Shown here in pieces: positions 33,225 to 38,525 of a stretch of 64,000 nt of DNA. The stretch comes from Longimicrobiales bacterium. Lineage in GTDB: Bacteria > Gemmatimonadota > Gemmatimonadetes > Longimicrobiales > Gaopeijiaceae. The stretch lies in assembly GCA_965204735.1 (NCBI GenBank), contig OZ242008.1:3680001-3744000 (forward strand). Reading direction: 5' to 3'. Position numbers and translations under genes: made by a program. Positions within the stretch are counted from its first letter, which is position 1, and each line of letters begins with the position of its first letter. The notes beneath the pieces were generated by a model, which saw nothing but the letters and a program-made list of their open reading frames with translations, searched no databases and had not been told where the DNA came from.

Positions 33225-34015
33225 CAAGAGAATGCATCGAGACGGATTTTAGACAGAAAGTAGCGGCAGAGATCCGCATCGCATCCGATGGTGTCGACAG
33301 ATATCGCGTATTCACGCCCTTTCAGTTCGACGACGGAGACCGCTTCTCGATCGTCTTGAAGCGAGAGAAGACGCAATGGCTGTTGTCGGACGAAGCACAC
33401 ACATACATGCACATGAGCTACGATATCGATGTCGACGAGCTGTATAGGGGTCGGCGCAAGGCACTCATAACCAAGGCACTCACGATGTTCGGCGTCGAGG
33501 ATCGAGACGGAGAACTTGTTATCGAAGTAGCTAAGCGCGATTACGGCGAATGCCTCTATTCGTTCGTACAGGCGCTGCTGAAGATTTCAGATGTATCCTA
33601 CGTGGCGCGTCCGAGAACAAAGTCTGCCTTTGCCGACGATTTTCGCGAGCTGTTGTCAGAAGTGGTTCCAGAAGACCGCCGGGACTTCGCTTGGCATGAT
33701 CAAGAGCGAGACCCGGCGGGCAAGTACACCGTTGATTGCCGGATCAATGGGACGCATCCGCCACTTGTCTTGCATGCCCTTCCCAGCGACGGCCGTACCC
33801 GCGACGCGACAATCACGCTGCTGACGTTCGAGAAATGGAAGATGCAGTTTCGGTCGCTGGCTATTTTTGAGGACCAAGAATCAATCAGCCGAAACGTGCT
33901 GGCGCGGTTCAGCGATGTCTGCGACAAGCAGTTCTCAAGCTTGTCTGCCGGTCGCTCCCGGCTGTCTCGTTACTTGGAGCCGTACCTCGCGACGCGGGCC
34001 AGAGGCAAGCCATGA
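33221..34015 (+). CDS. DUF1828 domain-containing protein
   Basis: [17 protein letters not shown]...[18 protein letters not shown]; possible PD-(D/E)xK-like C-terminal half. Confidence 0.7.
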
Positions 34016-36462
34016 CCCACGACCAGCTCGGATGGATCGCCAACTACATCTGGGGCATCGCCGACGATGTGCTCCGGGACCTGTACGTGCGCGGCAAGTA
34101 CCGGGATGTGATCCTGCCGATGACCGTGTTGCGCCGGCTGGACGCGGTGCTGGAGCCGACCAAGAAAGCCGTGCTGGAGCGGAAGGCCGTGCTGGACGAG
34201 GCCGGGGTCGCCAACCAGGACGGCGGACTGCGCGCGGCGGCGGGCCAGGCGTTCTACAACACCTCGGCCTTCACCATGCAGGACCTGAAGGCGCGGGCCA
34301 GCCAGCAGCGGCTGCGGGCGGACTTCGAGGCGTACTTGGACGGATTCTCGCCCAACGTCCAGGAGATCATTGAGAACTTCGAGTTCCGCAACCAAGTCCC
34401 GCGACTGTCCAAGGCGGACGCGCTGGGCTCGCTGATCGAGAAGCTGACTTCGCCCGACGTGAACCTGGGGCCGGGGCCGGTGCTCAAGTCCGACGGGACG
34501 GTCAGGCGGCCCGGCCTCGACAACCACGGCATGGGTACGATCTTCGAGGAGCTGGTGCGGCGCTTCAACGAGGAGAACAACGAGGAGGCCGGCGAGCACT
34601 GGACGCCGCGCGACGCCGTGAAGCTGATGGCCAAGCTCGTCTTCCTGCCGGTGGCGGACGAGGTCGCGCCCGGCACCTACCTGCTCTACGACGGAGCGTG
34701 TGGGACCGGCGGAATGCTGACCGTGGCCGAGGATACGTTGCAGGCGCTGGCCGAGGAGCGCGGCAAGAAGGTGGCCACGCACCTGTACGGCCAGGAGATC
34801 AACGCCGAGACCTATGCGATCTGCAAGGCCGACCTGCTTCTGAAGGGCGAAGGCGAGGCGGCGGACAACATCGTGGGCGGCCCCGAGCACTCCACCTTGT
34901 CCAACGACGCCTTCTCGGACAAGGAGTTCGACTTCATGCTGTCGAACCCGCCCTACGGGAAGAGCTGGAAGAGCGACTTGCAGCGCATGGGCGGCAAGCG
35001 GGAGATGCGCGACCCCCGCTTCGTGATCCAGCACGGCGACAACCCCGAGTTCTCCCTGGCGACGCGCGTCAACGACGGCCAGATGCTCTTCCTCGCCAAC
35101 ATGCTGAGCAAGATGAAGCGGGGCACGGCGCTGGGCAGCCGCATCGCCGAGGTCCACAACGGCAGCTCGCTCTTCACCGGCGGCGCGGGCCAGGGCGAGA
35201 GCAACATCCGCCAGTGGATCATCGAGAACGACTGGCTGGAAGCGATCGTCGCGCTGCCCCTGAACATGTTCTACAACACCGACATCGCGACCTACATCTG
35301 GGTCCTGTCCAACCGCAAGCCCGAGCACCGCGTCGGCAAGGTGCAGCTCATCGACGCCACCCAGTGGTTCACGCCCTTGCGGAAGAACCTGGGCAAGAAG
35401 AACTGCGAGCTGTCGGACGAAGACATCCATCGCGTGAGCGACGTGTTCTTGGCGTTCGAGGAGACGGAGGAGTCGAAGATCTTCGCCAACGACGCCTTCG
35501 GATACGAGAAGGTGACGGTGGAGCGGCCGCTGCGGATCGCCGGAGTCGAGCCGGAGCGCGTCTACAAGGCGGCGGAGATCAAGCGCCTGAAGGAGGAGGG
35601 GGAGCGGGACCCGGAGGCCGCGCCGGTGATTCGGCGGGCCTGGAAGAAAGGCGTGGAACCTGACCCGCTGGCGGGCCGGTTCGAGGCGGACGTGGACGGT
35701 GCGCCGGTAGTCGTGGAGTACGAGCCGGACCCCGACCTGCGCGACACCGAACAGGTCCCGCTGACCGAGGACGGCGGCGTGGAGAGCTTCGTGCGCCGGG
35801 AGGTCCTGCCCTACGCGCCCGACTCCTGGTACCGGGCCGACTCGGTGAAGACGGGCTACGAGATCAACTTCACCCGGCACTTCTACAAGCCGAAGCCGAT
35901 GCGGTCGCTTACGGAGATTCGGGCGGACATCCTGGCCACCCGGCGTCAGGCGGACGCACTGCTGGCGAGCCTAGTCGCCGAGCCCCGGCCGATGCCCTAC
36001 GGGGCGGAATTGCGGGTCTACGTGGATACCAGCGTCGTGGGCGGGTGCTTCGACGAGGAGTTCCGGGAGCCCTCGCGCCGGTTGTTCGAGGCGTTCACTC
36101 GGGGGGACCACACGCTGCTTCTGTCGTACCTCACCGCCACCGAGGTGGAAGGCGCGAGACAAGCGGTCCAAGACGTCCTGGAGCAGGTGCCCGACGCGCA
36201 CATTGAGGAGATCGAGCCGTCGGACGACGCCGATAGTCTCGCTCTTGCCTATATTGATGCAGGTGCCTTGGCCCCGTCGATGAAGGCTGACGCCCAGCAC
36301 ATCGCGCTCGCCACGTTGGGCGAGGCCGACATCTTGGTCAGCTGGAACTTCAAGCACATCGTGAACGCCCGACGGATCCAGATCTGCAACTCCGTGAACA
36401 TCGTCCAAGGACGCCAATCCATCGACATCCGCTCACCACGGGAGATCGAGTACCATGACTGA
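34012..36462 (+). CDS. hsdM: Type I RM m6A methyltransferase HsdM fused to a C-terminal PIN domain
   Basis: [45 protein letters not shown]; open frame continues into [11 protein letters not shown]...DAQHIALAT...SWNFKHI (PIN, about 36010-36462). Confidence 0.92.
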
Positions 36463-36673
36463 ACCTACGGAGAAGAAGCCATTCAGCTACGTCAAGCACC
36501 TGCGCGAGATCCGAGATCGGATCAACAAGGAGCTCGAACACATGACGCCCGAGGAGGCCCATCAATGGCACCAGTCTCGGGAGTACAAGAACCCGAAACT
36601 GCGTCGGCTGATGTCAAGGGCCAAGCAGCCGTCGCCGTCGCGCACACAACAATCGGCAGACGACGATGGCTGA
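36455..36673 (+). CDS. Small antitoxin-like protein (copy 1)
   Basis: 72 aa, FSYVKHLREIRDRINKELEHMTPEE; overlaps the PIN stop; paralogous to two downstream segments. Confidence 0.75.
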   Translation: MTEPTEKKPFSYVKHLREIRDRINKELEHMTPEEAHQWHQSREYKNPKLRRLMSRAKQPSPSRTQQSADDDG

Positions 36674-37406: not shown

Positions 37407-37620
37407 CCCAACAAGACCTCCGTCCATCAGCTACGTAAAGCTCCTCCGCGAAATCAGGAACCGCATCAACGAAGAAATCGCAGACATGACCATCGACGAA
37501 CGCCTACGCTGGCACGAATCTCAGGACTACGGAGGCGACCCGACACTCGAGGCCCTGGCGGCGAGGGCCAAGCCGCCGAAGCCCCCCTCCCCGCGGAAAC
37601 CGACGGAACAGGACGAATGA
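37399..37620 (+). CDS. Small antitoxin-like protein (copy 3)
   Basis: 73 aa, ISYVKLLREIRNRINEEIADMTIDE; GTG start overlapping the second PIN stop. Confidence 0.75.
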   Translation: MTSPTRPPSISYVKLLREIRNRINEEIADMTIDERLRWHESQDYGGDPTLEALAARAKPPKPPSPRKPTEQDE

Positions 37621-38525
37621 TTCCGCCGAGGTTCCGCCCATCTGGAGCTGCGATGAGCAGTGCGACGCCAAGCGAGCCTGTCAGTTACGCCAAGTCCAGA
37701 GCTGTAGGACCTGATGGCAAGGGCCAAGTCCCCGAAGGCTCCCCGACCATGGGGGCCGGAGGACTACGAAGAGTGACGTCACGGGTGGGCCGGGAACGGC
37801 CACGGTCCGCGAGGGCAAGAGCGACCGTCGCTAGCCAGCAACACGGGCTTCTTCCTTATCCGGAGTACAAGCCAAGTGGCGTGGAACGACCAGCGGAGGT
37901 GCCGGAACATTGGGAGGTAAGGCGACTGAAGTACGTTTGCAGACTACACTATGGTGACACCTTGTCGTCTGGCGATCGCGTTGCCCACGGTGACGTTCCC
38001 GTATATGGTTCCAACGGTCCAATCGGTGTTCACTCAGTAGCCAACACATCTGCACCGTGTGTGATCATCGGCAGGAAGGGGTCATATGGCAAGGTTGCGT
38101 ACTCGGAGATACCAACATTCGCAATAGACACAACCTACTATGTCGACTATCGGCATACCGACGCAGACATTAGATGGCTCTATTATGTGTTGGCAACCGC
38201 GGATTTGGATCAGGTATCGCGAGATTCTGCTATTCCTGGTCTGAATCGGACGGACGCCGACAATCGCATCTGCTTGTATCCTCCGTTACGTGAACAGCGC
38301 GGCATTGCGCGCTACCTCAATTGCGAGACCGCAAAAATCGACGCCCTGATCCAGCTCTTGACGGTGTCTTCGACCCACGGTGTTGTTCCGCGAACAGCCC
38401 CGGATGTGTCCGTAACCATGTTCGACCTGCTTCGCGAGTACAGAACCCGTCTGATATCCGACGTGGTGACCGGGAAGGTGGACGTCCGAGCAATCACCGG
38501 CGTGGACGAGGAGACCGCGAATTGA
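37617..38525 (+). CDS. hsdS: Type I RM specificity subunit HsdS with a single TRD (half-size)
   Basis: PYPEYKPSGVE..EVPEHWEVRRLK, IIGRKGS, PPLREQRGIARYL..ETAKIDALI, LLREYRTRLISDVVTGKVDVR. True start may lie 130-230 bp downstream. Confidence 0.88.
   Translation: MIPPRFRPSGAAMSSATPSEPVSYAKSRAVGPDGKGQVPEGSPTMGAGGLRRVTSRVGRERPRSARARATVASQQHGLLPYPEYKPSGVERPAEVPEHWEVRRLKYVCRLHYGDTLSSGDRVAHGDVPVYGSNGPIGVHSVANTSAPCVIIGRKGSYGKVAYSEIPTFAIDTTYYVDYRHTDADIRWLYYVLATADLDQVSRDSAIPGLNRTDADNRICLYPPLREQRGIARYLNCETAKIDALIQLLTVSSTHGVVPRTAPDVSVTMFDLLREYRTRLISDVVTGKVDVRAITGVDEETAN

Follow-up and report, generated by a model that had tools for sequence, protein, structure and literature searches.

A type I methyltransferase subunit, HsdM, fused to a conserved VapC-fold PIN domain with a predicted antitoxin: an apparently undescribed variant from uncultured bacteria

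Introduction

Why should a DNA methyltransferase carry a toxin-like nuclease at its C-terminus, and what would keep such a nuclease in check? These questions are raised by a locus of a Longimicrobiales bacterium (GenBank assembly GCA_965204735.1), lying in a stretch of 64,000 nucleotides (contig OZ242008.1, positions 3,680,001 to 3,744,000) that was analysed as a whole and is referred to as the window; all coordinates are those of the window. Here hsdM, the gene for the methylation subunit of a type I restriction-modification (R-M) system, runs into a PIN domain of the VapC fold, followed by genes for small proteins that we call A. A preliminary description of the locus had proposed that the PIN domain is a ribonuclease (RNase) held latent by the restriction complex, as PrrC is, or one that addicts the cell to its R-M genes. 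We find that the fusion is real, that its PIN domain is exchanged together with A, and that the nuclease is probably restrained by A.

Results

The hsdM frame runs into a complete PIN domain

The open reading frame (ORF) at 34012-36462 (+ strand) encodes 816 amino acids (aa), with no stop codon between the end helix of HsdM and the PIN domain. Its HsdM part (34012-35973, +; aa 1-654) is a type I N6-adenine methyltransferase with the S-adenosylmethionine-binding motif I and NPPY; over about 655 residues it matches Pfam HsdM_N and N6_Mtase, and PADLOC MTase_I with E 3e-234. A full-length structure model has the end helix at residues 633-654, then a disordered linker (predicted local distance difference test score, pLDDT, < 50 at residues 655-663), then an independent PIN domain (PIN1; 36010-36462, +; aa 667-816). 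The flexible linker of 12 aa (35974-36009, +) varies across homologues; across the fusions, linkers are nearly constant in length. In type I enzymes the HsdM end helix packs on HsdS and, together with conserved regions of HsdS, makes up a bundle of four helices (PMC10050889).

That the hsdM frame continues into a complete PIN domain, as first described, was borne out by this single uninterrupted ORF and by contigs that bridge the junction. The interval 35940-36020 is crossed by listed contigs from three of four sequencing runs, drawn from three studies: a contig of run X1, possibly the source sample, covers 35857-38092 with 0 differences, one of X3 covers 35917-36449 with 0 differences, and one of X4 covers 35850-36443 with 1 difference. 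An assembly error, or a stop codon lost in a single genome, was considered and is ruled out by these bridging contigs together with many in-frame homologues. The HsdM-PIN fusion is real. The genome is one 4.14-Mb contig with no further copy of the PIN family beyond the locus, and its HsdM clusters with those of Longimicrobiales metagenome-assembled genomes (MAGs) in our tree. Runs labelled as sponge metagenomes contain the stretch; no RNA dataset holding it was among those listed.

The PIN domain has the fold and active site of VapC toxins

Sequence libraries gave little on the PIN part: Pfam returned a weak match under the cut-off (PIN_3, E 0.007), NCBIfam no match and PADLOC none for any of 64 PINs, and a sequence search of the PDB gave nothing credible (best E 0.022, to an unrelated protein). 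A fold search was therefore needed for identification. The last 150 residues were predicted to adopt a VapC-like fold (pLDDT 88.6). This model aligned with the solved VapBC toxin 7vwo_A over 127 residues (Z 12.8, root-mean-square deviation 2.5 A), and Foldseek matched it to 3zvk with E 1.3e-4, at an identity of PIN1 to solved VapCs of only 12-23%. The catalytic residues D672, E711, D760 and N779 are kept in 64, 64, 63 and 64 of 64 aligned PINs, respectively. The tethered PIN domain is a conserved and apparently active toxin.

A small protein behind the PIN domain is a predicted antitoxin

Directly behind the fusion, A1 (36455-36673, +) encodes a putative cognate antitoxin of 72 aa, its start overlapping the PIN stop. 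Members of the A family measure 60-80 aa. A followed the PIN in all 79 loci with flanks (one copy in 50, two to four copies in 29), its start mostly overlapping the upstream gene, and lay directly behind 77 of 77 full PIN domains. Yet 40 of 127 downstream A matches were orphans without a preceding PIN piece; being obligate behind PIN but often orphan is the pattern expected if the toxin is active. Pfam assigned no convincing family to A1 or its relatives (each family that came up matched at most 3 of 70 members, and always weakly), no DNA-binding domain was recognised in A, and Atlas matches to A were only to clusters without names.

Models of the PIN-A complex scored 0.83 (median of three runs) versus 0.36 for the best control. 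At least 97% of contacts agreed between runs and the partner pLDDT was at least 77; the mark applied to such models is reached by 116 of 157 solved pairs and by 2 of 215 mismatched ones. The modelled interface spans A residues 9-57, where R17, which is invariant, and R20, which is nearly so, make contact with E711 and the D760 loop. A is predicted from these models to lie across the PIN active site and plug it with its conserved arginines. Linkage and modelling thus support the earlier idea that the small ORFs are antitoxins.

Related PINs also occur without a methyltransferase. The PIN family comprises 6651 clusters at 50% identity, mostly of ~155 aa among the 150 listed. In 21 of 59 metagenome PIN loci without hsd matches, an A-profile (hidden Markov model, HMM) match lay directly behind the PIN, and most of the remainder had another small ORF there. 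The same PIN-then-A order was found free-standing in four relatives, and on a plasmid whose PIN is named a VapC toxin by NCBI. Because A also accompanies free-standing PINs, PIN and A form an autonomous, putative toxin-antitoxin pair that has been grafted onto HsdM. Distant free-standing PINs of the family (L134-L158, L161-L181) have other small downstream partners; these pairs, which stand in tandem arrays of up to four (L140), make up a large unnamed reverse-order toxin-antitoxin family.

The PIN-A cassette is exchanged against hsdM

Over 29 disjoint close pairs of loci, the pooled ratio of nonsynonymous to synonymous divergence (dN/dS) was 0.16 for HsdM, 0.29 for PIN and 0.39 for A, which indicates that PIN and A are under purifying selection. 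The pairs fall into two classes. In 12 of the 29 the PIN diverges like HsdM (dS ≤ 0.41), while in 17 the PIN dS is 0.85-2.2 at an HsdM dS of ≤ 0.55; dN shows the same two classes. Inspection of 12 pairs revealed that the DNA of swapped pairs is ~90% identical up to the linker or slightly into the PIN and 50-60% identical beyond that point, and that unswapped pairs mostly hold 80-95% throughout. Protein distances over 63 loci (non-independent pairs) correlated at 0.64 between PIN and A and at 0.20 between HsdM and PIN. Likewise, the HsdM tree contradicts 8 of 15 supported splits among the PINs, and the A tree 1 of 15. A single branch of 93 rows takes in all 74 fused PINs along with 19 rows of unknown context (SH support 93, below our star mark). 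Two points temper these figures: GC content at third codon positions (GC3) is 0.95 in hsdM versus 0.83 in PIN1, and such high, low-diversity GC3 compresses the hsdM dS; moreover, pairs and tree rows are related rather than independent. Collectively, the comparisons show that the PIN-A cassette is exchanged as a unit against hsdM.

Displaced or decaying PIN-A cassettes were found downstream in L001, L008, L012, L021, L024, L034, L036 and L046, the one in L024 including the hsdM 3' end. The window holds another. What had been described as a second PIN protein does contain a PIN domain (PIN2), but its ORF of 246 aa (36666-37406, +) is a composite of an antitoxin copy (A2), an HsdM end-helix remnant and PIN2. 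The first 60 residues are A2; the remainder, 61% identical to fusion aa 626-816, retains the likeness to both end helix and PIN and so marks a displaced cassette of hsdM 3' end plus PIN. A3 (37399-37620, +; 73 aa) is probably cognate to PIN2: PIN2 resembles the PIN of the L053 fusion at 72% and PIN1 at 63%, and A3 is 61% identical to the A behind the L053 PIN and 50% to A1. PIN1 and A1 themselves resemble the L023 cassette (84% and 88%). A1, A2 and A3 are paralogues, 50-58% alike, and a broken fourth copy (37653-37776, +) carries an internal deletion, a frame change and a stop (three-frame translation; repeat families D3 and D4). Displaced cassettes decay and leave orphan antitoxins behind, and PIN2 belongs to such a cassette.

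Displaced cassettes often turn into single PIN-A or A-PIN chains, possibly self-neutralised (P0220, P0224, P0272, P0287, P0309, P0349, P0355; L001, L008). Further states of decay are an unfused hsdM with only an A relic (L209, identical to L105), an hsdM with a stop and a broken PIN (L193), and a deletion within hsdM joining its first 45 codons to PIN (L131).

The fusion occurs in eight phyla

Proteins with an N6_Mtase domain and a C-terminal PIN, for which the preliminary description had advised a search, were found elsewhere. With residues 630-816 as query, and among proteins of 448-1428 aa, 99 clusters of 3111 candidates were retrieved, 98 with N6_Mtase and most of them 810-830 aa long. A DNA pattern spanning the junction, which left the reading frame free, matched 94 places in GTDB genomes, of which 91 are in frame without a stop; the pattern requires a TAC codon and is thus biased towards high-GC genomes. 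The matches lie in eight phyla: Pseudomonadota (24), Acidobacteriota (23), Gemmatimonadota (23), Latescibacterota (10), Rhodothermota (6), Spirochaetota (3), Actinomycetota (2) and Binatota (1), with 2 lacking an assigned phylum. All 80 record titles shown for them denote MAGs, and we take the lineages concerned to be sponge symbionts; the carriers thus appear to be many uncultured, seemingly sponge-dwelling bacteria. None of 46 matching plasmid records covered 80% of the junction query, and a PIN search of viral contigs gave one partial PIN only.

The HsdM family is huge (at least 8000 members), its unfused members being mostly 659-660 aa long. Every one of the 18 nearest entries, counting the query, is a fusion; among the 102 that come next, 101 are unfused. 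In a FastTree phylogeny of 94 fused and 99 unfused rows (P0088, P0093 and rows lacking the full core were left out), 8 state changes are needed, of which starred branches force only 1. The PIN-A cassette also sits on a second HsdM branch, 43-45% identical (P0088, P0093), where similarity climbs to 66-72% at helix and linker. Sampling by HsdM similarity in Longimicrobiales (39 of 301 genomes matched) yielded 30 loci, comprising 12 intact fusions, 4 broken or residual cassettes and 14 loci with neither PIN nor A. An intact but unfused PIN following hsdM was seen in none of these 30 loci and at none of the 94 junction matches. In P0101, of the same HsdM family, a GmrSD_N (DUF262) fragment takes the place of the PIN, which shows that the tail of HsdM can carry other passengers.

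In loci with a 10 kb flank, hsdR was matched in 58 of 66 and hsdS together with hsdR in 51 of 66; 54 of 66 related loci have an hsdS of nearly full length. A DUF433 + DUF5615 toxin-antitoxin-like pair lies between hsdS and hsdR in about half of 80 clustered loci (43 and 35, respectively), and DUF6364 + PIN, HicA, GmrSD and Macro genes likewise lie downstream of hsdS in some (L001-L080).

In a few relatives A is tethered to HsdS

The A profile matched 12 longer proteins, 10 of which carry A on the N-terminus of a full HsdS (54-77% identical to A1). The same A-HsdS tether occurs in 2 of 79 loci, L023 and L053, the other 77 having only free A. In both of these loci a free A precedes the tethered one, which in L053 is a non-cognate allele, and in one of the ten proteins (P0212) the tethered A has lost the invariant arginine. 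Since the end helix of HsdM bundles with conserved regions of HsdS, this bundle is a place where toxin and antidote could come together.

The restriction locus in the window

The overlaps among the genes behind the fusion, which the preliminary description had listed, are confirmed in the sequence. In hsdS (37773-38525, +; the longest ORF starts at 37617) there is one complete target recognition domain (TRD). Relative to the full-length P0207, two in-frame deletions remove 78 + 127 = 205 aa (615 nt), and 24 residues stand in place of the usual 7 within the helix; the standard organisation of two TRDs and two coiled coils is lacking. Run X4 carries exactly 615 nt more at hsdS, and run X1 matches the window. 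Half-size HsdS proteins can function as dimers (PMC3874165); restriction in this genome may be impaired, or directed at a palindromic target. PIN1 and A are intact despite the deleted hsdS.

At first hsdR appeared to be absent, an impression ruled out by an intact-looking, cognate hsdR with nuclease and helicase motifs about 11 kb downstream (48883-52389, +; ORF limits, the true start lying somewhat later), 61-64% identical to the hsdR of other fusion loci. Between hsdS and hsdR lie IS21-type elements and cargo genes: a Schlafen/AlbA_2 gene fragment (38522-39223, +), several IS21-type elements (39200-47100; istA/istB, some broken), with two low-GC ORFs of no known family among them (43405-43920 and 43917-44471), and a SLOG cluster3 family gene (47064-47690). 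Two DUF6978-containing pairs flank the locus. The upstream pair, DUF6978 + DUF1828 (32613-34015, +; PADLOC PDC-M24-like), overlaps the hsdM start and is cargo not conserved with the fusion; the second (DUF6978 + DUF1828/DUF1829, PADLOC PDC-M24) lies at 47740-49346 on the minus strand, and further DUF1828 copies occur elsewhere in the genome. An ABC ATPase at 28300-29475 matches PADLOC HEC-01A (E 3e-170), its downstream partner gene looking truncated. A promoter and terminator scan gave chance-level signals only.

Discussion

The reading that we favour, and hold to be somewhat probable, is that the PIN domain is held by its own antitoxin and freed when A runs out. The locus would then be a reverse-order type II toxin-antitoxin pair, a VapC-fold RNase with A, attached to the C-terminal end of a type I HsdM. 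HsdM-PIN and A would be co-translated at about 1:1, with the nuclease kept off by A rather than by the restriction complex. Should A synthesis stop, either because the locus is lost or replaced or because a phage shuts off host expression, the long-lived HsdM-PIN would cleave host RNA and arrest the cell. The outcome would be addiction to the type I locus and a second line against phage; addiction, which the preliminary description had suggested, is thus kept as a possibility, tied here to depletion of A. Type I systems examined have shown no postsegregational killing (PMC3874152), and genes embedded in defence loci are frequently antiphage (bioRxiv 2024.01.29.577857). New cassettes would recombine in near the hsdM 3' end or the PIN start and push older ones downstream, where the PIN is lost and the antitoxin left. 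The mechanism would explain why old antitoxins are retained after a cassette is replaced.

Several points weigh against this reading. Toxicity, RNase activity, expression and trigger are all presumed. Part of the complex score may stem from similarity to VapBC complexes of known structure. With 14 of 30 loci lacking PIN and A and 4 more holding broken cassettes, any addiction is escapable. Finally, a Shine-Dalgarno (SD)-like start was found in 16 of 90 linkers versus 104 of 1628 control windows, and the PIN may have an internal start.

Latency imposed by the restriction complex, as first proposed from PrrC, is not supported as the main model: the PIN has a dedicated antitoxin, free PIN-A pairs occur far from restriction genes (21 of 59 loci, by HMM), unfused hsdM is common in the same lineages, and PIN1 and A stay intact beside a deleted hsdS. 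A guard role nevertheless retains some plausibility, because close relatives fuse A to the HsdS N-terminus. Here A would neutralise PIN only within a proper M2S or R2M2S complex, and Ocr, ArdA or Stp-like proteins that distort it would free the nuclease. The fusion point follows the HsdM helix of the four-helix bundle (PMC10050889), 51 of 66 loci with a 10 kb flank contain hsdS as well as hsdR, and a separately encoded intact PIN right after hsdM was seen in 0 of 30 and 0 of 94 cases. There are also precedents. The EcoprrI/PrrC system (type IC) likewise has an RNase toxin between the hsd genes of a type I locus, a candidate second defence line (PMC3874165, PMC12707154, PMC3710099); Ronin likewise ties a toxin to HsdMS, and its killing upon anti-restriction proteins is what the guard reading is modelled on (bioRxiv 10.1101/2023.04.06.535777). 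In contrast, PrrC is an ABC-NTPase-HEPN protein made on its own and kept silent by the Hsd complex, whereas here the PIN is part of the HsdM chain and comes with a dedicated antitoxin. The Ronin toxin, RonA, is a distinct membrane protein of 61 aa that HsdMS suppresses, and hsdR is absent there; in the fusion loci hsdR is usual (58 of 66) and the small protein is the predicted antidote. The tether of A to HsdS, seen in 10 of the 12 longer proteins and 2 of 79 loci, speaks for a guard, but 77 loci have only free A, L023 and L053 have a free A ahead of the tethered one, the tethered allele of L053 is non-cognate, and 1 of 10 tethered copies (P0212) lacks the invariant arginine. The pair also occurs elsewhere without restriction genes, and PIN1 is retained beside the deleted hsdS of the window. 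We regard a restriction guard as unlikely. The same doubt attaches to a bolder form of it, in which the RNase on the HsdM helix and an antidote able to hang from HsdS would make a built-in tripwire with a polymorphic warhead, released by anti-restriction proteins, with toxin-antidote alleles passing between phyla of a single symbiont community as part of an arms race.

Another alternative differs from the antitoxin-depletion reading solely in whether the tether matters. A mobile toxin-antitoxin pair would have landed once in the cargo slot between hsdM and hsdS, lost its start and borrowed the hsdM promoter and ribosome site, the tether being inert. This slot is a hotspot for toxin-antitoxin genes (43 of 80 clustered loci have DUF433 and 35 have DUF5615), the HsdM tail takes other fusions (the GmrSD_N piece of P0101), all fused PINs share a single branch (74 of its 93 rows, below the star mark at SH 93), crossovers inside the conserved PIN start would preserve the fusion automatically, and accidental-looking A-PIN and PIN-A fusions also exist. 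An inert tether is hard to square, however, with a fusion that persists across eight phyla and two HsdM branches at near-constant linker length, and no intact unfused form was seen in this position; we consider it quite improbable. That the methylase aims the PIN at unmethylated target sites on invading DNA, so that it cuts emerging transcripts or DNA flaps on the spot while A acts as a safety catch, is very hard to credit: a covalent link to a DNA-scanning enzyme would put the PIN on DNA, and PIN folds include structure-specific nucleases, but the nearest folds are VapC toxins, the family is mostly free-standing (6651 clusters) and allele swapping with matched antitoxins suits a toxin better.

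How does the antitoxin-restrained fusion relate to known systems? With VapBC (PDB 7vwo, 3zvk, 2bsq) it shares the VapC fold, the acidic active site, overlapping genes and, by prediction, an antitoxin that covers the site with arginine. It differs in that the toxin comes first and the antitoxin second, A has no recognised DNA-binding domain such as VapBC antitoxins use for autoregulation, Asn occupies the fourth active-site position and the toxin is fused to a 655-aa methylase. In polymorphic toxins of the CdiA/Rhs type, a constant trunk bears a variable C-terminal toxin tip with cognate immunity, displaced cassettes and extra immunity genes. The fusion locus matches this pattern in its constant trunk, exchanged toxin, cognate immunity and orphan cassettes; unlike there, the trunk is a cytoplasmic methylase and all tips belong to one PIN family, and the likeness carries no suggestion of delivery into other cells. 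For PIN genes that neighbour type I subunits, toxins transcriptionally coupled to hsdM or hsdS have been described (PMC5499597), but as separate genes in non-conserved arrangements, with no fusion mentioned in the accessible main text. [quoted passage not shown] The accessible parts of PMC3506569 and PMC12988326 hold nothing on an HsdM-PIN fusion, nor was a description found in the literature searched, which mostly excluded subscription papers and did not extend to REBASE. The system acts like a VapBC pair and sits like PrrC, and is a member of neither as defined; it is apparently an undescribed variant joining two known kinds.

RNase toxins linked to type I systems have been known only as separate proteins, and here a methylase-RNase fusion extends across eight phyla, together with a previously unnamed antitoxin family and a cartridge-like exchange. 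The locus makes it possible to ask, in a compact setting, whether type I loci, normally not loss-resistant, can become addictive, and whether a toxin-antitoxin pair can sense the state of a restriction complex, for which nature supplies the contrasts: fused versus unfused HsdM, free versus HsdS-tethered antitoxin, and cognate versus orphan alleles. Sponge symbionts are enriched in both restriction and toxin-antitoxin genes (PMC5649159), and the fusion bears on why they hold so many of each. The swapping of PIN-A cassettes hints at an undescribed means by which a restriction system could be locked in or backed up.

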